In this document: in pieces, positions 1 to 20,940 of the stretch
Numbering within the stretch: the first letter of the stretch is position 1
Layout of the letters: each line of letters starts with the position of its first letter
Position numbers and translations under genes: made by a program
The notes under the pieces: model-generated
What the model saw: the letters and a program-made list of their open reading frames with translations, nothing else
The model's database searches: none
Told to the model about the DNA's origin: nothing
Source of the DNA: Flavobacteriales bacterium
GTDB taxonomy: Bacteria; Bacteroidota; Bacteroidia; Flavobacteriales_F; PHOS-HE28
DNA length: 64,000 bases
NCBI GenBank assembly: GCA_044347005.1
Contig: JBIIYD010000001.1
Coordinates: 6,158 to 70,157 of the forward strand
Direction: 5' to 3'

Positions 1-1
1 C

Positions 2-862
2 GCGCGTCCCTTCGCCACGCACCACAACGCACTGGACGTTCCTTTCTTCCTGCGCATCGCCAACGAGCTCTATCTCAAGCGCCTTATCGTGGGCGGCTTC
101 GATGGCGTGTTCGAATTCAGCCGCAACTTCCGCAACGAGGGCATGGACCGCACCCACAACCCGGAGTTCACGGTGATGGAGCTGTACGTGGCCTACAAGG
201 ATTACCACTGGATGATGGACTTCATCGAGGGCGTGTTCCGTCAGGTTGCCACGGCCGCCAACGGCACTCCCACGGCACAGTTCCAGGGTAAGTCCATCGA
301 CTTCGGCCAGCCCTTCAAGCGCATCACCATGTGCGGCGCCATCGAGGAGAAGATCGGACTGAACGTGCTCGATATGGAGGAAGAGGACGTCCGTGCGCTG
401 TGCATGAAGCACAAGATCGAAGTGGCGCCAAGCATGGGCAAAGGCAAGCTCATCGACGAGCTCTTCAGCGAACTGGTGCAACCCGAATTGATCCAGCCGA
501 CGTTCGTCATGGACTTCCCGCTGGAGATGAGCCCGCTCTGCAAGAAGCACCGCGACGATGATCGACTCACGGAGCGTTTCGAGCTCTACGTGGCAGGCTT
601 CGAGGTGGGCAACGCGTACAGTGAATTGAACGACCCTATCGATCAGCGCGAACGTTTCGAAGAGCAACTGAAGTTGATGGAACGCGGCGATGACGAGGCC
701 ATGTTCATCGACCAGGATTTCCTGCGTGCCCTGGAGTACGGCATGCCGCCTACCTCAGGCATCGGCATAGGCATGGACCGCCTGGTGATGCTGCTTACCG
801 ACAACCCTGCGATCCAGGAGGTGCTGCTGTTCCCGCAGATGAGGCCGGAGAAATTCGAATAA
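2..862 (+). CDS. lysS: Lysine--tRNA ligase (class II), C-terminal portion; the 5' end lies upstream of the window
   Basis: The frame is open from nt 2 (ARPFATHHNALDVPFFLRIANELYLKRLIVGG...). Diagnostic class-II LysRS segments: FEFSRNFRNEG, MELYVAYKDY, GIGIGMDRLVMLLT. Stop at 860-862. Confidence 0.9.
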   Translation, partial: ARPFATHHNALDVPFFLRIANELYLKRLIVGGFDGVFEFSRNFRNEGMDRTHNPEFTVMELYVAYKDYHWMMDFIEGVFRQVATAANGTPTAQFQGKSIDFGQPFKRITMCGAIEEKIGLNVLDMEEEDVRALCMKHKIEVAPSMGKGKLIDELFSELVQPELIQPTFVMDFPLEMSPLCKKHRDDDRLTERFELYVAGFEVGNAYSELNDPIDQRERFEEQLKLMERGDDEAMFIDQDFLRALEYGMPPTSGIGIGMDRLVMLLTDNPAIQEVLLFPQMRPEKFE

Positions 863-863
863 G

Positions 864-1388
864 TCAGAGCGCGACCCGCCAAACCATCGCTGGCGTACCA
901 CGATGCACGGTGTCCTTTTCGAAGGCCATTCCATTGCGCTTTGCCACGGCCTGACTCGCGAAATTCTCGTGGTCGATCAGCGAGATCACGGATGGCACAA
1001 GTTGGTGGTGCTGTGCGAATTCTTTGCACGCGATGGCCGCTTCCGTAGCATAACCCTTTCCCCATGCGGACGGCAGAAGGTGGTAACCGATCTCCAGTTC
1101 ATCCACGCCATCCACGACCTGGGTCAACAGTCCGATCATGCCCACGGGCTTGCCAGTGGCTTGTTCGATGATGGCGTTCAGCCCCGAACCGTCGGTGACA
1201 CGGCGGTCCATGCTGCGTTGGATGAATTCGCGGCAACTTGCTTCGCTGCCTACAACGAGCGACATGAAGCGGATGGCCTCGGCGCTGTTGATGTACTCCA
1301 TCCACCAGGAAAGATCATCCATGCTGGTATGGCGGAAGACGAGCCGCTCGCTGGTGACACCGTGCGTGGAGGGGATGCGCTGGATCAT
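864..1388 (-). CDS. GNAT family N-acetyltransferase (RimJ/RimL-like)
   Basis: 174 aa. Acetyl-CoA binding-like core VGMIGLL...WGKGYATEA. Its stop overlaps the start of the downstream gene by 4 nt. Confidence 0.7.
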   Translation of the reverse strand: MIQRIPSTHGVTSERLVFRHTSMDDLSWWMEYINSAEAIRFMSLVVGSEASCREFIQRSMDRRVTDGSGLNAIIEQATGKPVGMIGLLTQVVDGVDELEIGYHLLPSAWGKGYATEAAIACKEFAQHHQLVPSVISLIDHENFASQAVAKRNGMAFEKDTVHRGTPAMVWRVAL

Positions 1389-2566
1389 TGTTCACGCATA
1401 TACTGTTTCCAATTCAACACACGAATACCGTCGCGGGGTGGGCCATCGGACCCGGAGTAGACCAATGCGCACTCCACCTTGCGGGGGTAGAGTTCGCGGT
1501 ACTTGTGCAGGCTGTTGAACATTGCCGACGTGATGGTGGAACCGCTCTTGATCTCGGTGAGCTTCCGTGTTGGTCCATCTTCGAGAAGATCGATCTCGAC
1601 GCCATGGCTGTCACGCCAGAAGTACAGGTTGGGCCGTCGTCCCTTGTTGAGAGCGGCTTTGTAGCGGTCCACGATGATCGCGTTCTCGAAGAGTGCTCCG
1701 CGCGCCCAGTGGCGTGCAAGGTCATCGGGAGTTTGTAGGCCGAGCAGTGCGCAAGCCAGACCCGTGTCGGAGAAGTAGAGCTTGGGCGACTTCACCAGCC
1801 GCTTGGTGAAATTCTCGAAATGGGGCTGGAGTTTGAAGACGATGTAACTCGTCTCGAGCACACTCATCCAGCTATTGATCGTGTTCGCGTCCACCCCCAC
1901 TTCCGTGGCCACGGATGCTTGGTTCCATAGCTGGCCGATGCGGCCTGCAGCGATCTGGATGAACTTGCTGAACAAGCTCACGTTACGAAGGTCGATCACT
2001 TGTCTGACGTCACGCTCCACATAGGTCTGGATGTAGCTCAGCAGCCAGGGTGCCGGGTCGCGGGGTTGTTCATACAGCCGCGGATAGCCGCCCCGAAAGA
2101 TCCATTGGTCCACATTGTCCGGCAGCAGGCCAGCGGCATCCAACTCAGCGGCACTCAACGGCAACAGCTCCTGTATGTATGTTCTGCCGGCCAGCGATTG
2201 ACTTACCTGTCTCAACAGCATAAGGTTGTGTGATCCGGTAAGCACGTAGTGGCCATTACCACCCAGTTCATCCACCCGCACTTGGATGTAGGAAAGCAGG
2301 TCGGGTGCATGCTGCACCTCATCGATGATCAACTGCGGACCGTAATGGTCCAAGAATCCGACCGGGTCCTCTATGGCCTGGGTTCGATGGTCCAACTGTT
2401 CCAAGTTCACATAGCTCCATTCCGGAAGAACGTCGCGCGCCAATGTGGTCTTACCGGCTTGCCGCGGACCCATCAGGGTTACCACCGGCATTTCGGCCAC
2501 GCCCTTCAATAACAAATGTGCCTGATCGCGAGGAAGTTTGTTCACCGCGTAGTGAGATTTGTTCAA
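1385..2566 (-). CDS. AAA-family ATPase with C-terminal DUF4143-like domain
   Basis: Walker A GPRQAGKTT and Walker B LIIDEVQ. Common Bacteroidota ATP-binding protein architecture. The listed start is a TTG; an internal ATG (MPVVTL...) is an alternative. Confidence 0.7.
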   Translation of the reverse strand: MNKSHYAVNKLPRDQAHLLLKGVAEMPVVTLMGPRQAGKTTLARDVLPEWSYVNLEQLDHRTQAIEDPVGFLDHYGPQLIIDEVQHAPDLLSYIQVRVDELGGNGHYVLTGSHNLMLLRQVSQSLAGRTYIQELLPLSAAELDAAGLLPDNVDQWIFRGGYPRLYEQPRDPAPWLLSYIQTYVERDVRQVIDLRNVSLFSKFIQIAAGRIGQLWNQASVATEVGVDANTINSWMSVLETSYIVFKLQPHFENFTKRLVKSPKLYFSDTGLACALLGLQTPDDLARHWARGALFENAIIVDRYKAALNKGRRPNLYFWRDSHGVEIDLLEDGPTRKLTEIKSGSTITSAMFNSLHKYRELYPRKVECALVYSGSDGPPRDGIRVLNWKQYMREQ

Positions 2567-2598
2567 ATATAGAGTACAACTTCAGAATTACACAAACA
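2564..2598 (-). promoter_or_regulatory. Putative Bacteroidota sigma-A type promoter (-33 TTTG / -7 TAtaTTTG) for the ATPase gene
   Basis: The reverse complement of the AT-rich intergenic region reads ...gtgTTTGtgtaattctgaagttgtactcTAtaTTTGaac, with ~21 nt spacing between the two elements. Confidence 0.3.
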
Positions 2599-2644
2599 CA
2601 TTGTAAGTAATTGATATCCTAACCTTTGCGTTCGTGTAAGGGTA

Positions 2645-4522
2645 TTACTCCACCCGCTCCACCTTCTCCATCACATCCCCCACCTGTAACCGCCACACCA
2701 CGTCCATACCCTCCACCACCTCGCCGAAACGTGTGTAGCGACCATCCAGGTGCGGGGTGGCGCTGTGCGTGATGAAGAACTGGCAGCTCTCGGTATCCCT
2801 TCCGGCGGAAGCAAGGCCGATCGATCCCGCCGTGAACAGCTTGCGGCCGATCTCCGTGCGCAGGGTATAGGGCATGCCGCCATATCCATCGCCGCGCGGG
2901 CAACCACCCTGCACCACGAAGTTGGGCACCAGACGGTGGAAGGCCTTGCCGTTGTAGTAGCCTGCCGTTACGAGCGAATCGAAGGCGAGGCTGCTGCCTG
3001 GGCAGTCGTTGACATCGGTAGCGAGGATGACGGAGCCTTTAGTCGTGGTGATCCGGTAGCGCTGGCCCTGTGGAAGGGCTCGGAGCTTTTCCTTGTCGAT
3101 GGGGTGGTTGAAGGGTGGCGCTTGCTGGGTTGGCGGGGGAAGGCCATCGCGCTTTGCGGCCACGTTGGCCAGCAGGATCCGAGCCTCCAGATCACGAATG
3201 GGCAGAAGCGCGGACAAGGCCCAGGACTCCGTTTCCCGATCGAACAACAGACCGATGGCCTCGGGGTCTTCTTCCAAGAGCAGTTCGGCGGCGGCACAGA
3301 TCAGCCCTTCATCACGGGTGCGGATGGCACTGCGCACCACCTCGCCAAGTTGGCTGTACCGTGCCGCTGGATCGGCATAACGTGAACGCATCATGATCTC
3401 CCGAACGATGCGTACCGCACCTTGGAAGGCGGCCTGTTTCAGCGGAGCCGGTTCGCTGCTGCGCAGCACGAAGAGCAATCCCTGCAGCGTTTCGTCCCGC
3501 GGTGCCCGGGAGTAGGAACCGAGTACTTCGGCACGTTGGTAGGTCGAAAGTTTTCCGGCGACCAATCGCTCCATGGCCACGCCGGCCTTCCCAGCCATGT
3601 CTTCATCGCCGTGCTGCATGGCAAGACCAAGCAACGCGATCCGTGTGTTGGTGTCGGCCACTTGGGTTTCCCACCTCAGGCACCGGTCGGCATCCAGATC
3701 GGATCGTTGTTGAAGGAAGTCCATGGCGACCGTGGACATTGCAGGGTCGGACAGGGCGTGCAACAGCAGTTCCTGGTCGCTCACCGCATCCCAAGCAACA
3801 AGGACGCGCAACGCATTCACCCGCTCCGCGTATGCACCTGTCCCCAAGGCGATCGCACGCAACTCCGGTGTGTTCGCCAGTGGATCAAGGTGCTTCATGA
3901 TGAGCAGGAGCAGTGCACGCACTTCGGCGTCCCCGCTCCGCATCAGTTCTTGTAGTTCGGTGGTCCATCCGGCGAAGGTGGTGTCCGGCAAGCGCCGTAA
4001 CGCATCCGCAGCTCTTGCCCGGTCCTGCCCGCTGCTGCTTTGCAGGAAGTGGATGATGGCCTGCGGGTCCTTCAGCATCCCCTTGCGCTGCATGGCCAGG
4101 AAGGAAGCACTGAGGTAGGCGCGTTGCACAGTGCTGTCGCGTTCATTGATCGCCAATTCGGCCATGCGTTCGATGGTGAGGCTGTCCGCCACAAAGCCCA
4201 GCGCGAAGACAGCGGCTGCGCGCACATTCGCGGAGGTATCTCCCAACGCACCCATCAGACAAGGGATCCCCGAGGTGTCCTGCACACTGGCGAATGCAAG
4301 CGCTGCCGCATCGCGCACTTCTGATGCCTCGTGCTTCAGCAGCGCGCAGAGCGCATCGGTATCGCGGTGTTCCTGGGCCTCAAGTATGGGCCAAAGGCGT
4401 TCATCGGCCCAGCGGTTGGGTGGAGCTTCGGGTGTACCTGGTCCTGGAACCTCGCACGCTGCAAGGAATGCAAAACCCAATACGAGGATGATGTAGCGTA
4501 TCACCCCACGAAGATCATTCAT
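2645..4522 (-). CDS. HEAT/PBS-lyase repeat protein fused to a C-terminal cyclophilin-type peptidyl-prolyl isomerase domain
   Basis: 625 aa. Signal-peptide-like N-terminus and repeated helical HEAT-like units. The C-terminus carries FHRLVPNFVVQGGCP...GSIGLASAGRDTESCQFFITH, a cyclophilin signature. Confidence 0.75.
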   Translation of the reverse strand: MNDLRGVIRYIILVLGFAFLAACEVPGPGTPEAPPNRWADERLWPILEAQEHRDTDALCALLKHEASEVRDAAALAFASVQDTSGIPCLMGALGDTSANVRAAAVFALGFVADSLTIERMAELAINERDSTVQRAYLSASFLAMQRKGMLKDPQAIIHFLQSSSGQDRARAADALRRLPDTTFAGWTTELQELMRSGDAEVRALLLLIMKHLDPLANTPELRAIALGTGAYAERVNALRVLVAWDAVSDQELLLHALSDPAMSTVAMDFLQQRSDLDADRCLRWETQVADTNTRIALLGLAMQHGDEDMAGKAGVAMERLVAGKLSTYQRAEVLGSYSRAPRDETLQGLLFVLRSSEPAPLKQAAFQGAVRIVREIMMRSRYADPAARYSQLGEVVRSAIRTRDEGLICAAAELLLEEDPEAIGLLFDRETESWALSALLPIRDLEARILLANVAAKRDGLPPPTQQAPPFNHPIDKEKLRALPQGQRYRITTTKGSVILATDVNDCPGSSLAFDSLVTAGYYNGKAFHRLVPNFVVQGGCPRGDGYGGMPYTLRTEIGRKLFTAGSIGLASAGRDTESCQFFITHSATPHLDGRYTRFGEVVEGMDVVWRLQVGDVMEKVERVE

Positions 4523-13536: not shown

Positions 13537-13667
13537 GCCCTGGACCGGGAAATCCTCGCGCACCAGACCGATGCGCCTGTCCCTTGCACGGATGTCGAAG
13601 AGGCAAGGCGACCACCGCCCGTGGGGCATGGAGTGCAGCACCGCATGCCACCCGTACTTTTGCGGCC

Positions 13668-14000
13668 ATGGCAAAAAAGGCTGCTCCTCCCTCCCCGATC
13701 ATTCCGTCCGCGTTGGAGTTGCACGACGAGGCCGAGAACCGCCAGTTCGTTACGCGGGTGGACGGCCTGCGCGCCACCGTGGAATACGACCGCGACGGGG
13801 AGCGGATCTTCCTCACCGGGCTCAACATCCCCAAAAGCCTGCAGCCCTTGGGCCTCGGCGATGCCCTGCTGGAAAGGGTGCTCACCCATGTGGAAGAGCA
13901 GAAGTGGAGGCTCATTCCCACCCACCCGGCCATCAAGGACTACCTGCGCACCCACACGGCTTGGCAGCGGTTGTTGTTGAAGGGGGTGCAGTTGCGGTGA
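13668..14000 (+). CDS. Small GNAT-fold acetyltransferase (YjdJ-like, GNAT_2 type)
   Basis: 110 aa, MAKKAAPPSPIIPSALELHDEAENRQFV...DGERIFLTGLNIPKSLQPLGLGDALLERVLTHV. Confidence 0.6.
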   Translation: MAKKAAPPSPIIPSALELHDEAENRQFVTRVDGLRATVEYDRDGERIFLTGLNIPKSLQPLGLGDALLERVLTHVEEQKWRLIPTHPAIKDYLRTHTAWQRLLLKGVQLR

Positions 14001-14024
14001 GGGGGCGCTGAGGCAGGGACTCGA

Positions 14025-15002
14025 ATGCCTGTCGCCGACCCGCCTGCTATCTTCCGCCTCATGTCAGCGGCTTCGCTTCCCGACTACCTGCGCCTCAAGC
14101 AAGGTGGCGGCAACGCGCCGCATAAGCCGATCATGCTGCTGGCCGTGCTTCGTGCCTTCGACGAAGGACTGATCATCGAGAACCGCATCGAACCTTCCGC
14201 TGAGCTGATCAATCTCTTCAATGGCTACTGGCAAGCGCTGGTGCCAACCGAAAGGCCTCAAGGCCGCTTCCATTATCCCTTCTTCTACCTAAAGAACGAA
14301 CGCTCCGGCCTGTGGACACTGCACACCCTGCCCGGGTTTGAACGTGCGCTTACACGTGGCCGCGACATCAAAAGCCTTGGCGCCCTCACCAATTTCGAGG
14401 CCTATGCCACTCTGCGCGATGATGTGTACCAACGGTGGCTCAACCCTGAATATCGCGTCGCCGCTCGTCTTGCACTAATGGCCCACTATTTCAATGGCCA
14501 GGCTCTGCCGCTCACTCTGACCGACCACCTGCGCGAGATCGAACAGCAGATCGTACACGACAGCCCTGAGACATACAAGGCCCGACAGCACCAGCTGATC
14601 CAGGTCGAAGAGGAGGAAGAACAGATCCTGCGAGGTGCCGCTTTCAAACGCAAGATCCCCGAGCTCTACGAGTACCGCTGCGCCATCACCGGACTACGGG
14701 TCCAGAACCGACGAGCCGTCAACCTCATCGATGCCTGCCACATCGTACCCTGGGCCGATTCCTTCGACGATACCATCAGCAACGGCATCGCGCTCTGCCC
14801 CAACATGCACCGCGCCTTCGACCGTGGGCTCATCAGCATCGCCGCTGACCACTCGGTACTGGTGGCCCCGGACCTCCTGGAAAGCGCGAGCAGCCATGCC
14901 ATCCGCCCCTTCGCAGGCAAGCGCCTGATGTTGCCCAACGAGAAACGCCATTGGCCCGCACCGGAGAATCTGGCTCGGCATCGGGAGCGGTGGGGGTACT
15001 AA
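14025..15002 (+). CDS. HNH_2-family endonuclease with a ~200-aa N-terminal accessory domain (restriction-endonuclease-like)
   Basis: C-terminal HNH module YRCAITGLRV...NLIDACHIVPW...NGIALCPNMHRAFDRGLISI (HNH_2 pattern). The N-terminal domain (HKPIMLLAVL...FHYPFFYLKN...WTLH) is of the kind seen in modification-dependent restriction enzymes. Confidence 0.75.
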   Translation: MPVADPPAIFRLMSAASLPDYLRLKQGGGNAPHKPIMLLAVLRAFDEGLIIENRIEPSAELINLFNGYWQALVPTERPQGRFHYPFFYLKNERSGLWTLHTLPGFERALTRGRDIKSLGALTNFEAYATLRDDVYQRWLNPEYRVAARLALMAHYFNGQALPLTLTDHLREIEQQIVHDSPETYKARQHQLIQVEEEEEQILRGAAFKRKIPELYEYRCAITGLRVQNRRAVNLIDACHIVPWADSFDDTISNGIALCPNMHRAFDRGLISIAADHSVLVAPDLLESASSHAIRPFAGKRLMLPNEKRHWPAPENLARHRERWGY

Positions 15003-15044
15003 CCAACTATTCGCGATCAAACGATCACATTTGCGAGATACAAG

Positions 15045-16976
15045 ATGCGAAGCACCCCAGGAGCAATAGATGGAGAAGGATTTGGCTGGGCAGGTAACTT
15101 CCCTGTATTGAAAGGTGCCACACTTAGCGAAGTTGTAAACGCGCTCATGAGCTTTGTGCGAGACGCTACTCCAGAGCAGATCCGTGCGTGGAACAGTTCC
15201 ATCCCTTTAGTACAGATCGAAGCGGGTAAGGTGCTCGATATTCAACCTTCTTCGAAAGAGTATGGCGCAGTGTTCGAGTACACGATGCCATACAGCCAAA
15301 GGAGGGTTGATGTGATCCTGCTTATCTCAGGGGCAGTTCTTGTTGTGGAACTGAAAGGGGACAGTAATACACGACAAGGTGACATCGAACAGATGGCAGA
15401 CTATGCCCGTGGGCTATATACGAATCATACTCTTTGCGGAGAAGACGGAGTTCGTGTACATGCACTTCTGGTGTCATACGGTATGCCAAGTGCGGAACGC
15501 AAAGAAGAGTGGTACACGCTGACCAACATAGACAAGCTGCATGAAGAGGTCATGCGGTTCGACCAACCAGAGAGAGCTTCGCCAATACCCCTTGATCGTT
15601 TTCTGCACCAAGAAAATCACCAACCTCCTCCTTCGCTGGTCCAAGCTGTTAGGGCGTACTTCTCTAAACAAGAATTGCCTAGGATCAAGCGCATTGATGA
15701 TGTCACTGGCGATGCGTTGAAGTCCGTGATAAGCGAGATACGTGAGACTCATTCAGCCAAACGGCGCAAGCTGATCCTTGTGAGCGGAGTACCCGGGGCT
15801 GGCAAGACCTACGTTGGACTCCAGATCGCACACGAGCATTTCCTCGATGACCTCTCGGAGGTAATGGAGAGCGGGTCGAAGCCATCCGCCCCTGCTGTAT
15901 TCCTCTCCGGTAACAAGCCGCTCGTGGACGTTCTTCAATACGAGATGCGAAGAGCCGGTGGTGATGGAAAAGTTTTCGTGCAGAATGTGAAAGACTTTGT
16001 GAAGCGCTACTCGACCAAGAAGGCGGTTGTCCCACCTCACCACGTTCTGATCTTTGATGAGGCTCAGCGTGCGTGGGATGCCAAGCGTGTTAAGGCGAAG
16101 CATGATGATGTGCATGCCGTTTCCGAACCTGAGTCATTCATCCGATTCGCCAGTCGTATTCCTGCGTGGTCCGCTGTTATCGGATTGATCGGCGAAGGGC
16201 AACAGATCTACACCGGTGAAGAAGGGGGAATGGACCTTTGGGCTGAGGCTATTCAGAACGGGGGTGAACAGTGGGATGTAGTCGGCCCGCCTCAATTCCA
16301 ATCCATATTTCGATCACGGGGTTTAGCGTACACACCTATTGCTCCTTTACACCTTGCGCGTTCCGTTCGTTTCCATTTCGCTCATGGCCTTAGTGAATGG
16401 TCAGGGGGAGTGGTCGATGGTCACCTAAGTACAGGAGAACTATCCCTTATGGTCGACCACCTTTGGCAGCAGGGGTACCAGATCCGCATTACGCGCAACC
16501 TACATAAGGCTAAAGAGTTTCTTTGGGAGAAGTACCGACTACAGCCGGACGCTCGCTACGGGATGCTCACCGGTGGACGCGACAAGGGTCTGCAAGATCT
16601 TGACTTGAACAAAGTGAACACGCGAACATTCCGTGCAGGTCCGTGGTACGCTGACCCCGAAAGTTCTCCCAGTTCATGCAGGCGCCTCACAGATGCGATC
16701 ACGGAATTCTCCGCACAAGGCCTTGAGCTGGATCATGCACTCTTGGTCTGGGGAACCGACTTGATCCGCAAAGCAGGGGTATGGGATGATGCACTCGCAA
16801 TGCGCTATCTCCGCAAAGGCGATGTGGCTGATCCACTCCAGCTTAGATTGAATGCTTATCGGGTCTTGCTAACACGTGGACGTGAAGGTGTGCTGATCTG
16901 TATCCCCCAACAGATAGCCGAATTGGACGAGACATTCGACTTCCTCATGGCAGCCGGATGTCGTCCGTTGGAGTGA
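15045..16976 (+). CDS. NERD/PD-(D/E)xK nuclease fused to a DUF2075 (Schlafen group-3-like SF1) P-loop ATPase/helicase
   Basis: N-terminal RRVDVILLISGAVLVVELKG (D...ExK). Walker A VSGVPGAGKTYVG. DEAQ box VLIFDEAQRAW. Noticeably lower GC than the flanks. Confidence 0.8.
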   Translation: MRSTPGAIDGEGFGWAGNFPVLKGATLSEVVNALMSFVRDATPEQIRAWNSSIPLVQIEAGKVLDIQPSSKEYGAVFEYTMPYSQRRVDVILLISGAVLVVELKGDSNTRQGDIEQMADYARGLYTNHTLCGEDGVRVHALLVSYGMPSAERKEEWYTLTNIDKLHEEVMRFDQPERASPIPLDRFLHQENHQPPPSLVQAVRAYFSKQELPRIKRIDDVTGDALKSVISEIRETHSAKRRKLILVSGVPGAGKTYVGLQIAHEHFLDDLSEVMESGSKPSAPAVFLSGNKPLVDVLQYEMRRAGGDGKVFVQNVKDFVKRYSTKKAVVPPHHVLIFDEAQRAWDAKRVKAKHDDVHAVSEPESFIRFASRIPAWSAVIGLIGEGQQIYTGEEGGMDLWAEAIQNGGEQWDVVGPPQFQSIFRSRGLAYTPIAPLHLARSVRFHFAHGLSEWSGGVVDGHLSTGELSLMVDHLWQQGYQIRITRNLHKAKEFLWEKYRLQPDARYGMLTGGRDKGLQDLDLNKVNTRTFRAGPWYADPESSPSSCRRLTDAITEFSAQGLELDHALLVWGTDLIRKAGVWDDALAMRYLRKGDVADPLQLRLNAYRVLLTRGREGVLICIPQQIAELDETFDFLMAAGCRPLE

Positions 16977-17036
16977 GCCGATCTGGTCAGTCAACATTCC
17001 CTGGCATTTTCGGTCAAGGTTCCGTACCCTGGTCGA

Positions 17037-17285
17037 ATGCTTACCGACAAGGAATACGTCATTCGCCTCAACAGCTTCGATCTGGGGCAACTCATCGATG
17101 GCTTGGAGGTTCGTGCCCGTGCGTGGCGCGATACGGCAACCTACCTGCACACCGGCGAAGTACCAAGCGCGGACTTCGTGATGGAGGAGTGCCGTGATGC
17201 GGAGGAAGCTGAGCGGCTGGCCGAGCACTATGAGCGGATCAGGGATCTCATTCACCTGCAACAGAAGGAGCAGGACCGGGCATGA
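17037..17285 (+). CDS. Hypothetical small acidic protein (orfA), co-directional with the DUF2075 gene
   Basis: 82-aa ORF 60 nt after the upstream stop. Its stop overlaps the next start (ATGA). Confidence 0.4.
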   Translation: MLTDKEYVIRLNSFDLGQLIDGLEVRARAWRDTATYLHTGEVPSADFVMEECRDAEEAERLAEHYERIRDLIHLQQKEQDRA

Positions 17286-17629
17286 ATCCGCGCTATCGGC
17301 GGGAACTGGTCCGGTTGGGCTTTACCATCCCCGAGGAGGCTACCTACGTTGTCCATTGCATGTGGCGGCCACCCAAGGGCCAATGGCCTGCGCTGGGTGC
17401 TCGTCCGCGACCTGTATGGGTGCAGCTCAACGACACCGGAGACCATCGATCGGCTGCGATCGAGGCTTGCTTGTTCTTGATCGCACAGCATCGCGGGAAG
17501 GCGACAGCTTTATCGGTAATGGCCGACAACTGCCATCCCCAGATCATCAACGACGTGTGTTTCGACTGGAACTGGTATGACGGGGTGGTCACGTTCGGGG
17601 CTGAGGTGGTGGAAGTAATATGGTCATGA
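17282..17629 (+). CDS. Hypothetical small protein (orfB), translationally coupled to orfA
   Basis: 115-aa ORF. ATGA overlap with orfA. Confidence 0.4.
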   Translation: MNPRYRRELVRLGFTIPEEATYVVHCMWRPPKGQWPALGARPRPVWVQLNDTGDHRSAAIEACLFLIAQHRGKATALSVMADNCHPQIINDVCFDWNWYDGVVTFGAEVVEVIWS

Positions 17630-19143: not shown

Positions 19144-19587
19144 CTACCGCTTCCTTTTCACCAACCTCAGCGCCTGCTTCGCGCTCAGCCGTTTTACGCC
19201 GATGTGGCCGTCGTAGTCGGGGTCGCGGCTTACGATGGCGTCGAGGGTTCCGGCGGAAACCACGGCCCAGTATTGGGCGCCGTCCTCCAGGTCACCGAAA
19301 GTGCTACCCGCGCTCTGCAGGAAGTGGTTCGCATCCAAGGGCACCAGCTCCACACAGGCCAACAGATCTTCAAGGGTGCGACGGACGTGCTCGCGCAGGA
19401 GGCCCTTCTTAGCTGCATCCTTGCGCTGCAGGTGGTAAAGCACAATGCCGATACTGAGGGAGGTGGTGAGCAACTTCACTTGCCGTTGTTCCCCCAGGGC
19501 CAATAGAAGCAGCGCCTCCTCGGGGTCATGCGGGCGTTCGAGGATGGCATCCAGCAAGATGTTGGCGTCCACGAAGAGCCGCATCAT
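19144..19587 (-). CDS. vapC: PIN-domain toxin (VapC-like)
   Basis: MMRLFVDANILLDAIL. PIN acidic residues. ATGA overlap with the upstream antitoxin. Confidence 0.8.
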   Translation of the reverse strand: MMRLFVDANILLDAILERPHDPEEALLLLALGEQRQVKLLTTSLSIGIVLYHLQRKDAAKKGLLREHVRRTLEDLLACVELVPLDANHFLQSAGSTFGDLEDGAQYWAVVSAGTLDAIVSRDPDYDGHIGVKRLSAKQALRLVKRKR

Positions 19588-19874
19588 GCGCGGTCCTGTT
19601 TTTCGCGCTTACGGCGCTCGTAGGCCTTGGTCTTGCGCAATTCCGCACCGCCGCGGTCATCGGCCTCGAAGTCGGCTTCGGTGACATGCTTGGCCCAGAA
19701 CCCACGCCATTTCAGGATGTTAGCCTCACTTTCTCCTTCTGGGGTGGGTTGTTCGTCGCTCTTGTCGGCAAGGTTCTCCACCAGTTCGCTGATGCTCTTG
19801 CCTTTGCGAGCGCTGGCCTTGCGGAGCATGGCCACCTTGCGCCGGTCGATGCTGAGGGTGAGCTTGGTCTTCAT
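19584..19874 (-). CDS. Type II antitoxin partner of the PIN toxin (copy 1)
   Basis: 96 aa, basic N-terminus MKTKLTLSIDRRKVAMLRKASARKGKSISELV. Overlaps the toxin start. Confidence 0.7.
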   Translation of the reverse strand: MKTKLTLSIDRRKVAMLRKASARKGKSISELVENLADKSDEQPTPEGESEANILKWRGFWAKHVTEADFEADDRGGAELRKTKAYERRKREKQDRA

Positions 19875-19946
19875 GCATTGTCCGCCGAAGCTTTAGCGTA
19901 GGCGGGGGTATTGCGAAGTTACGTGTCCGGTGATACGTATACTGGA

Positions 19947-20279
19947 TCAGATCAGGGATCTGGGATCTTTCCGTTCGCTTGGGAATTGGGCGGGGTGCTT
20001 ACCACTGGCCTTCTGCATTCGCTCGTAGGCCTTGGTCTTCCGCAATTCGGCGCCGGCCCGGTCATCGGCCTCGAAATCGGCTTCGGTGACATGCTTGGCC
20101 CAGAATCCACGCCACTTGAGGATGTTGTGCTCGCCTTCTCCTTCTGGGGTGGGTTGCTCTTCACTCTTGTCGGCGAGGTTCTCCACCACATCGCTGATGC
20201 TCTTGCCTTTACGCGCGCTGGCCTTGCGCAGCATGGCCACCTTGCGCCGGTCGATACTGAGGGCGAGCTTGGTCTTCAT
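19947..20279 (-). CDS. Orphan tandem duplicate of the antitoxin (copy 2); divergent C-terminus, no cognate toxin
   Basis: Near-identical to copy 1 up to ...RKTKAYER. It then reads through into GATC-repeat sequence where copy 1 overlaps the PIN start. Confidence 0.6.
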   Translation of the reverse strand: MKTKLALSIDRRKVAMLRKASARKGKSISDVVENLADKSEEQPTPEGEGEHNILKWRGFWAKHVTEADFEADDRAGAELRKTKAYERMQKASGKHPAQFPSERKDPRSLI

Positions 20280-20432
20280 GCATTGTCCGCCGAAGCTTGT
20301 GCGTAGGCGGGGTATCACGAAGATACGTGTGCGGTGATACGTACGCAGATCTGATCATCCCATTTCTGATCGGAGCATCTATATCGGGTAACGGGTCCGC
20401 TACCGTAGCTTTGGTTTCCATTGCAGTAACCG

Positions 20433-20669
20433 ATGAGCACCGACAGCATGCGCATGGAATTGATCCGCTGGCTGAGCCAGTTGGATGACAAGGGGCTGCT
20501 TGCTTCCCTGCTCCACTTCAAGCAGGCCAACGAGTCCCATGACTGGTACGACAGCCTGACCGCTGAGCAACAAGCTGCCATTGCCGAGGGCGAAGCGGAC
20601 ATCAAGGCTGGTCGCGTGCGTTCTTCCGCGGAAGTGTGGGAAAAGTATGGCCGCACTCCGAAGAGTTGA
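20433..20669 (+). CDS. Type II antitoxin (ParD/RelB-like, addiction-module component)
   Basis: 78 aa. Overlaps the downstream ParE/RelE gene. An alternative start is at 20454. Confidence 0.65.
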   Translation: MSTDSMRMELIRWLSQLDDKGLLASLLHFKQANESHDWYDSLTAEQQAAIAEGEADIKAGRVRSSAEVWEKYGRTPKS

Positions 20670-20940
20670 GTGGTCCGCCCGAGCGGAACGCGACTTGGAC
20701 CGGCTTTACGCCTTCGGGCTGGAGCGCTGGACCAAACGCGAGGCCGACCATTTGCTGGATATGGTGCAGGAGTTCGAAGCACTGATCGCGCGTTGGCCGA
20801 ACGGCTTCAAGCGTTCGCAACGCAACAAGCATCATCGGCTGGGCTTCGTTCACCGCAACACATCGGCGGTGTACCGCGTGTATCGCGACCGGGTGGTGAT
20901 CGTGACCATGTTCGACAATCGCGCCGATACCGCGTGGTGA
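20647..20940 (+). CDS. parE: ParE/RelE-family toxin
   Basis: MAALRRVEWSARAERDLDRLYAFGLERW...VYRVYRDRVVIVTMFDNR, the typical ParE/RelE fold pattern. Confidence 0.75.
   Translation: MAALRRVEWSARAERDLDRLYAFGLERWTKREADHLLDMVQEFEALIARWPNGFKRSQRNKHHRLGFVHRNTSAVYRVYRDRVVIVTMFDNRADTAW

Follow-up and report, generated by a model that had tools for sequence, protein, structure and literature searches.

A predicted sulfur-binding domain joined to an HNH nuclease: a probable phosphorothioate-dependent restriction enzyme in a Flavobacteriales bacterium

The gene studied here lies in a stretch of 64,000 nucleotides (64 kb) from contig JBIIYD010000001.1 of a Flavobacteriales bacterium, below called the window, and is an open reading frame (ORF) on the plus strand at 14025-15002 that starts with ATG and encodes 325 amino acids (aa), with the strings LPDYLRLKQGGGNAPHKPIMLLAVLRAF, RFHYPFFYLKNERSGLWTLH and CHIVPW...NGIALCPNMHRAF in its translation. 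It sits inside a co-directional run that consists of a GNAT acetyltransferase gene (13668-14000), the gene in question, a gene for a 643-aa protein and two small ORFs, and this run is followed by toxin-antitoxin-like genes and uvrC (Table 1). An earlier note on this DNA had read the protein as an HNH endonuclease with a possible modification reader at its N terminus, and we call the gene SBD-HNH after the DNA sulfur-binding domain (SBD) and the HNH nuclease that are discussed below.

SBD-HNH is a real and conserved gene. A search at E<=1e-5 gave 3025 homologues, mostly ~311-325 aa long and from Flavobacteriales and other Bacteroidota, which public sources name only as 'HNH endonuclease' or 'putative restriction endonuclease', and a protein identical to that of the window is recorded on 8 contigs from several metagenomes (4 places shown, 3 with DNA). 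Throughout this work, the family profile and the conservation counts refer to 47 sampled homologues, and the neighbourhood census refers to 80 related loci taken from reference genomes.

The true start of the gene is probably not the first ATG of the ORF but M13, giving a 313-aa product, because most homologues begin there ('MP.A..LPDYLRL') and residues 1-12 have a low predicted local distance difference test score (pLDDT) in the AlphaFold2 model (54 for residues 1-10). The model, made from an alignment of the 47 homologues, has a mean pLDDT of 91.9 and a predicted template modeling score (pTM) of 0.87, and it falls into three parts: an alpha/beta N-terminal domain at ~19-155, a helical linker at 156-214, and a beta-beta-alpha HNH core at 236-266. 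The earlier note had taken the first ~200 residues to be a separate domain, and separate it is, but the reader domain itself covers ~145 residues and the remainder is linker. The C-terminal extension behind the HNH core is predicted with high confidence (pLDDT 93-98) and contains the invariant residues L303, P311 and H319.

Table 1. Features of the SBD-HNH gene and its surroundings, in window coordinates
Feature	Coordinates	Strand	Basis and remarks
SBD-HNH endonuclease gene	14025-15002	+	325-aa ORF; probable true start ATG 14061 = M13, 313 aa
Predicted sulfur-binding domain, residues 13-155	14061-14489	+	phmmer, family profile, Foldseek
A31-P32-H33-K34-P35, predicted first wall of sulfur cavity	14115-14129	+	N terminus of helix 33-46; invariant (47/47)
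Y84-P85-F86-F87-Y88-L89, predicted cavity floor (P85) and second wall (Y84, Y88)	14274-14291	+	helix 83-91
W97, conserved core tryptophan of SBDs (= ScoMcrA W175)	14313-14315	+	invariant (47/47)
Helical linker, residues 156-214	14490-14666	+	model secondary structure; helices 168-178, 181-190 and 196-214; acidic run E195-E199
HNH_2 nuclease core, residues 219-272	14679-14840	+	Pfam PF13391, PADLOC PDLC04132, VcaM4I and TagI matches
C-terminal extension, residues 273-325, then stop	14841-15002	+	conserved in family; NF045808 alignment reaches residue 321
Nhi-like nuclease-helicase, 643 aa	15045-16976	+	Pfam PF09848, PADLOC PDC-S41, weak HSDR_N
Two small ORFs, 82 and 115 aa	17037-17285, 17282-17629	+	4-bp overlap
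Toxin-antitoxin-like cluster	19144-20940		PIN_3 19144-19587 (-); two paralogous DUF6364 genes 19584-19874 and 19947-20318 (-); ParE-like 20581-20940 (+)
Small ORF upstream of the ParE-like gene	20433-20669

Identity of the two halves of the protein

Sequence and predicted structure both make the N-terminal domain a homologue of the DNA SBD, the module with which type IV restriction enzymes dependent on phosphorothioate (PT) recognise the sulfur in modified DNA. This assignment is made because four lines of evidence agree, namely a protein family model, sequence and profile matches to entries of the PDB, the predicted fold, and the residues of the sulfur cavity. The NCBIfam model NF045808 ('phosphorothioated DNA-binding restriction endonuclease') aligned nearly end to end, from residue 24 to 321 of the protein and from position 13 to 280 of the 284 in the profile, with an E value of 2.8e-29, and it matched 47/47 of the sampled family members, with a best E value of 9.7e-34. 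When the single sequence was compared with PDB sequences by phmmer, the SBD-only construct 8H0L (SBDHga) was found at E 4e-7 over residues 25-144, and the family profile found 8H0L at E 2.5e-20 and ScoMcrA at 5.6e-5 (5ZMM) and 2.5e-4 (5ZMO). The SBD of SprMcrA gave no sequence-level match to the PDB search with either the single sequence or the profile.

The structural comparison proposed in the earlier note led to the same family. The best Foldseek matches of the N-terminal domain in the PDB were the SBDs of Hga (8H0L, TM score 0.71-0.75), ScoMcrA (5ZMO, 0.62) and SprMcrA (7CCJ, 0.59), the superposition on the Hga domain having a root mean square deviation of 3.5 A over ~145 residues, and the model has the mostly helical fold with a two-strand sheet that is typical of an SBD. 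SRA, PUA/EVE and winged-helix readers were rejected as candidates for the N-terminal domain since both sequence and fold matches to that half are to SBDs only. A dimerisation-only or unrelated fold, which the earlier note had named as the outcome that would speak against a reader, was rejected on the same matches. A local Pfam search over residues 1-204 gave no credible domain, only noise (Vel1p, DnaG_DnaB_bind), and a search with the domain alone against 1.84 billion representative proteins returned 778 clusters, mostly of ~310-325 aa, i.e., with the same SBD-HNH layout. The domain is thus not uncharacterised, as had been stated, but belongs to a known family, for which three crystal structures are available and some ten enzymes have been tested.

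Some homologues of ~40% identity (P0083, P0084, P0092 and others) carry a precomputed match to Pfam PF26340 that the window protein does not have. PF26340 may be the Pfam SBD family.

The cavity that accommodates the sulfur is known from three SBDs. In ScoMcrA, crystallography and mutagenesis have defined it as H116, R117 (a lysine in most homologues), Y164, P165 and A168 (PMC6224610); in SBDHga it is formed by H25 and K26 on helix A2 and L75, P76 and H79 on helix A4 (PMC10602919); and in SprMcrA by Y31, Q32, Y78, P79 and A82 (PMC7470945). In our alignment, H33/K34/Y84/P85/Y88 of the window protein correspond to H116/R117/Y164/P165/A168 of ScoMcrA and to H25/K26/L75/P76/H79 of Hga, so that segment 84-89 is the equivalent of Y164-P165-F-W-A168-L and L75-P76-Y-Y-H79-L, respectively, and the predicted helices 33-46 and 83-91 correspond to the crystal-structure helices A2 and A4. 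P85 is invariant in the family (47/47), while position 84 is L in 42 homologues and Y in 4, and at position 88 there are 39 with H and 6 with Y. The hydrophobic core described for ScoMcrA, including W175 (PMC6224610), is also recognisable, with P35-I-M-L-L, F86, F87, L89 and W97 in the places of P118-V-L-L, F166, W167, L169 and W175; P35 and W97 are invariant, and the remaining core positions are conserved to 90% or more or show conservative replacements. The family likewise matches the signatures 'KPzzLL..PF.L.W' and 'HK...YP', which are known from EcoWI and further PT-dependent enzymes that have been tested (PMC7461809).

The C-terminal half is an HNH_2 nuclease, as the earlier note had said. 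Pfam PF13391 matched with 51.3 bits against a gathering cut-off of 21, and the PADLOC 'HNH' model PDLC04132 matched with an E value of 3.3e-20. The key residues are D236, C238, H239 (the general base), N253, C258, N260, H262 and D266; C219, D236, C238, H239, N253 and D266 are invariant, H262 is kept in 46/47 homologues and N260 in 39/47, and judged from these residues the catalytic site is intact with no sign of decay. Against the PDB, the nuclease half was closest to VcaM4I (6YEX, E 1.5e-7) and TagI (6GHS, E 2.4e-4) in the profile search, and Foldseek found the type IV HNH enzymes TagI and VcaM4I (E ~4e-5) and ScoMcrA for this half.

Evidence for and against a phosphorothioate target

Our preferred explanation, to which we assign a probability of about 0.65, is that the gene encodes a stand-alone type IV SBD-HNH restriction endonuclease that would cut PT-modified foreign DNA. 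The idea in the earlier note of a modification reader (SRA, SBD and similar) fused to an HNH nuclease is supported by this, with SBD as the type of reader indicated by sequence, predicted fold and cavity residues. The SBD would dock on double-stranded DNA and take up the Rp sulfur of a PT linkage in a small hydrophobic cavity on its surface. This cavity would have P85 as its floor and be walled by the methylene groups of H33, K34, Y84 and Y88, and the ammonium group of K34 would pair with the phosphorothioate. The HNH_2 beta-beta-alpha-metal nuclease, with H239 as general base together with N253 and H262, would be held by the helical linker and cut a few base pairs away, probably as a dimer like EcoWI (PMC7461809). 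The targets would be phage or plasmid DNA from PT-writing hosts (dnd/ssp/brx type), which would be destroyed, and the host itself would be expected to be without PT in the recognised sequence context. The analysis itself shows the homology of the domains, the predicted fold, the conserved residues of cavity and catalytic site and the autonomy of the gene in related genomes, whereas PT binding, PT-dependent cleavage, the sequence context, the distance of the cut from the modification and the presence or absence of PT in the host are inferred.

The range of sequences recognised may differ from that of the closest solved relative. The substitution L75Y in Hga lowered binding to GpsTTC and GpsATC (PMC10602919), and since tyrosines take the places of Hga L75 and H79 in the cavity of the window protein, its specificity may be narrower than that of the promiscuous Hga. 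This argument is by analogy with the Hga mutant, and on it the window enzyme may be less promiscuous than SBDHga. The region equivalent to the short base-reading L4 loop of Hga is of similar length and aligns with a single one-residue gap.

Several observations weigh against a PT-dependent restriction enzyme. The NF045808 score of 102.1 bits is well under the curated cut-off of 180, which places the window protein, though homologous, outside the narrowly curated ('exception') family and allows it to be filed in the broader SBD-HNH kind only. Its domain shares just 20-26% identity with the crystallised SBDs, and it belongs to a Bacteroidota clade, consisting of metagenome-assembled genomes (MAGs) of Flavobacteriales, that lies outside the tested members. 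Only P85, H33 and K34 are strictly conserved among the cavity residues of the family, Y84 and Y88 of the window protein differ from the family majority of L and H, and most of the residues by which SBDHga contacts the DNA backbone are not conserved (R18>Q26, H19>G27, R70>Q79, S107>G119). The clustering of the cavity residues in space would follow from the alignment and the helix positions, not from model coordinates. On the genomic side, the 64 kb of the window do not cover the genome-wide PT status of the host, and a dndC gene is found beside some relatives, as described below.

Some of these observations would fit an SBD fold that reads something other than PT, for example a different modification of backbone or base, a structure of the DNA or plain sequence, in which case the protein would be an HNH nuclease of type IV or type II-like character with another specificity. 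The low identity to characterised SBDs, the score below the cut-off, the differences from SBDHga in two of five cavity positions and in most backbone-contact positions, and the placement of all tested enzymes outside the Bacteroidota clade all point in this direction. However, all sampled family members retain the residues that mutagenesis has found critical for sulfur recognition, namely the floor proline and the H-K/R pair. The two wall positions that vary, 84 and 88, also vary among proven SBDs, with Y or L at the position of ScoMcrA 164 and A or H at that of 168, and A168H/R is tolerated (PMC10602919, PMC6224610, PMC7470945). The linkage of relatives to dndC and iscS likewise points to PT, and we regard a non-PT target as unlikely.

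The window itself has no trace of PT synthesis genes in the parts that were covered. With DndC and IscS as tblastn queries, nothing was found over the whole 64 kb, and no dnd or ssp gene was present in the Pfam annotation, which covered ~4-43 kb and ten long ORFs at 41-64 kb (it left out bases 1-4000 and, at 43-64 kb, the shorter ORFs). The result fits a host without local PT modification and is compatible with a type IV role, but it says little on the rest of the genome.

The picture is different in some of the relatives. In Dyadobacter sp. 3J3 (L027, 6569-10392), dndC overlaps the start of SBD-HNH by 14 bp on the same strand, scores 482 bits to TIGR03183 against a cut-off of 290, and is adjoined by an IscS/DndA-like gene. 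In a Mucilaginibacter MAG (L055, 6501-8924), dndC is directly upstream of the SBD-HNH homologue, and in a Chloroherpetonaceae MAG (L069, 3748-8930), dndC is the first and SBD-HNH the last gene of a tight five-gene operon. Relics of dndC lie directly upstream of SBD-HNH in two more loci (L059, 7520-7852; L037, 7755-7862). In total, an intact dndC is directly upstream on the same strand in 2/80 loci and in the same operon in 1 more, with relics in 2, and the solitary dndC genes of these linked relatives score 440-482 bits to TIGR03183. No dndB, dndD or dndE was found within 8 kb on either side in the Dyadobacter and Mucilaginibacter loci. Through its linkage to dndC and iscS, the clade is connected with PT chemistry by evidence other than homology, which supports the SBD assignment, and the adjacency of a PT writer is at the same time awkward for an enzyme that would kill PT-modified DNA. 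In the Chloroherpetonaceae operon, the three genes between dndC and SBD-HNH (L069:5076-7947; 375, 212 and 367 aa) have 4-bp overlaps and no NCBIfam match.

An alternative that takes this adjacency at face value is that SBD-HNH is the reader-nuclease arm of a PT modification system whose DndC-type writer lies at another place in the genome or has been lost, and that PT is not the trigger for cutting. Binding to the PT of the cell itself could then restrain or redirect the nuclease, as for partners of the DndFGH/SspE type, or the HNH nuclease could nick DNA during PT insertion. Besides the linked genes and relics and the missing dndB, dndD and dndE, it is in favour of such a system that a single DndC-like gene, tdpC, has been reported to be sufficient for PT synthesis (PMC12914056) and that the cavity and HNH residues are intact in the dndC-linked members (P0089). 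Against it, no DndC-like sequence was found in the 64-kb window, and no dndC is nearby in any of the 13 other loci of the window sub-clade (Flavobacteriales, 57-82% identity). The dndC-linked members share just 40-43% identity with the window protein, and members with other contexts are interspersed among them. Furthermore, all tested SBD-HNH enzymes are PT activated (PMC7461809, PMC6224610), and it is already known that dnd adjacency is infrequent among predicted PT-dependent enzymes (<3.6%), an observation ascribed to partners that are inactive or whose specificity differs (PMC7461809). Because the 13 sub-clade loci have no dndC link, we keep this alternative only as a minority rival for the window gene and find it unlikely. 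A related possibility is that the Bacteroidota SBD-HNH clade, ancestrally or in part, is the reader-nuclease half of a minimal module of solitary DndC (plus cysteine desulfurase) in which self-PT gates the HNH nuclease and does not trigger it, and that the window copy is an orphan or works with a writer at another place in the genome; this we consider quite unlikely.

A Ferruginibacter MAG chromosome (OZ251999.1, ~1.266-1.299 Mb; L064 and L070) has two SBD-HNH paralogues ~16 kb apart, which suggests that several PT-reader enzymes of different specificity can be present in one genome.

The helicase-nuclease neighbour and the defence hotspot

The gene downstream of SBD-HNH had been called a helicase-nuclease in the earlier note, and the analysis agrees with this, as it encodes a helicase-type protein with a probable nuclease at its N terminus. 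The 643-aa protein matched Pfam PF09848 (DUF2075/SLFN-g3 helicase) with an E value of 2.4e-53 and has the Walker A motif GVPGAGKT at residue 248. Its N terminus is a probable PD-(D/E)XK nuclease, as suggested by a weak HSDR_N match at residues 84-122 and the PD-(D/E)XK-like motif D89...E102-L-K104. The PADLOC model PDLC05014, of the single-gene candidate system PDC-S41, matched it near full length (E 1.7e-104), and no mention of PDC-S41 was found in the literature. With the single-gene systems Nhi, Nhi-like (bioRxiv 10.1101/776245 and 10.1101/2022.05.11.491447) and PDC-S41, it shares a PD-(D/E)XK-type motif and the DUF2075/SLFN-g3 helicase, although the similarity to Nhi of Staphylococcus epidermidis is limited to the Walker A region (PADLOC Nhi E 0.048). 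No relative of the 643-aa protein was found among PDB sequences. The G+C content of this gene is 0.526, compared to 0.603 for SBD-HNH and 0.614 for the window, which suggests separate acquisition, and it is probably a recently acquired single-gene defence.

The earlier note had used this neighbour as an argument for the plausibility of a modification-dependent system, and this argument turned out to be weak. One could envisage that SBD-HNH and the DUF2075 protein form one two-gene modification-dependent system, in which SBD-HNH would recognise or nick the modified DNA and the helicase-nuclease would translocate along and degrade it. Both genes lie on the plus strand, separated by 42 bp with no terminator-like site in between, the same order is seen in two other loci (L015 and L009), and the adjacency recurs in four distant ones (L035, L065, L054 and L045), with a second DUF2075 clade within two genes of SBD-HNH in two more (L036 and L087), which is far above random placement. 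It has also been noted before that modification-dependent endonucleases adjoin DUF2075 NTPases, with the proposal that they may cooperate (PMC6765204). However, only 6/80 loci have a homologue of the 643-aa protein next to SBD-HNH, and in three arrangements (same order in 2, upstream on the same strand in 2 and convergent in 2), whereas SBD-HNH is without this DUF2075 neighbour in the other 74/80. It is found among varied defence genes, the commoner ones being further HNH_2 proteins whose N-terminal domains differ (17 loci) and a ~1600-aa helicase (10 loci). Nhi, Nhi-like and PDC-S41 are moreover single-gene systems, and tested SBD-HNH enzymes work alone (PMC7461809).

In the closest syntenic relative (L004, 75% identity, with the same acetyltransferase and uvrC flanks), the place of the DUF2075 gene is taken by a 256-aa HNH_2 gene on the opposite strand (L004:6949-7810). 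The slot between SBD-HNH and the conserved 82-aa ORF, 15003-17036 in the window, has two alternative fillers in close Flavobacteriales relatives: the DUF2075 Nhi-like gene on the plus strand in the window, L009 and L015, and the 256-aa HNH_2 gene on the minus strand, with a different N-terminal domain, in L004, L008, L010, L014 and L016. The two fillers alternate within the window sub-clade, a pattern of cassettes being exchanged at a small defence hotspot beside a resident type IV gene. An obligate two-gene system with the DUF2075 helicase-nuclease was rejected on the basis of the 6/80 adjacency, the three arrangements, the replacement of the slot in the closest relatives and the different G+C content, and we consider the two-gene reading very unlikely. 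From the neighbourhood census, the slot swapping and the difference in G+C content, we conclude that SBD-HNH is autonomous and that the helicase-nuclease is a separate single-gene cassette that shares the hotspot. The recurrent nearness to DUF2075 genes is best read as clustering in defence islands, which earlier work had seen for other modification-dependent enzymes (PMC6765204).

The two small ORFs that end the co-directional run had no family match in Pfam, NCBIfam or PADLOC. The 82-aa ORF is kept in 10 related loci outside the window genome (64-72% identity) and the 115-aa ORF in 5 of those (36-48%); in one locus (L005), the 82-aa homologue adjoins a second HNH_2 gene and not the SBD-HNH gene. 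Co-transcription of the five genes at 13668-17629 is possible. No terminator-like site lies between them, and the two such sites that were detected are both inside genes and are no more than in shuffled sequence. A scan for sigma-70 promoters found nothing. A -7 motif of the Bacteroidota type, TACTTTTG, is present at 13655-13662 on the plus strand just upstream of the acetyltransferase start at 13668, and this motif (TAnnTTTG) is not enriched in the window, with 9 found and 7.4 expected.

Meaning and comparison with known systems

A gene with only a general public name can now be named as a probable PT-dependent SBD-HNH restriction enzyme, and this naming predicts that the Flavobacteriales lineage excludes DNA of PT-writing donors. 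PT-dependent enzymes are also reagents for the mapping of PT sites, as in EcoWI-seq, and an Hga-like SBD with an unusual Y..Y cavity combined with an HNH nuclease might offer a different sequence range. Of wider interest outside the window is the solitary dndC that is operonically linked to SBD-HNH in some Bacteroidota and Chlorobiota relatives, as this may be a minimal PT module of a writer and a reader-nuclease.

Among known systems, the SBD-HNH enzymes of NF045808 (SprMcrA, EcoWI, Ksp11411I and Bsp305I) are alike in having an N-terminal SBD, a variable linker, as described for EcoWI-type enzymes (PMC7461809), and a C-terminal HNH nuclease in ~280-320 aa, and also in being stand-alone genes of defence islands, usually without dnd genes nearby. 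SprMcrA resembles the window domain by fold alone and not by sequence. On sequence and model evidence, the window protein is most likely a divergent Bacteroidota representative of these PT-dependent restriction enzymes that falls below the threshold of NF045808.

The closest solved relative of the N-terminal domain is the SBD of Hga from Hahella ganghwensis, with 26% identity. It has the same H-K pair and proline floor, and the family consensus LPF[YF]HL equals the segment L75-P76-Y-Y-H79-L of Hga, while the window protein itself has Y84 and Y88 in place of L75 and H79. The nuclease of Hga is of the PD-(D/E)XK type, in contrast to the HNH nuclease here. ScoMcrA (SBD-SRA-HNH) has a homologous SBD with the same cavity and core residues, but it is larger, with 561 aa compared to 313-325 aa, owing to an additional N-terminal head domain and the SRA domain, and its classical HNH aligns only marginally with the HNH_2 of the window protein (4.4 bits).

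For the nuclease half, the closest relatives are VcaM4I (PUA/EVE-HNH) and TagI (SRA-HNH), which follow the same design of an N-terminal reader and a C-terminal HNH_2 nuclease. The readers of these two enzymes, PUA-like and SRA, respectively, bind flipped modified cytosines, whereas the reader of the window protein is predicted to be an SBD for backbone sulfur.

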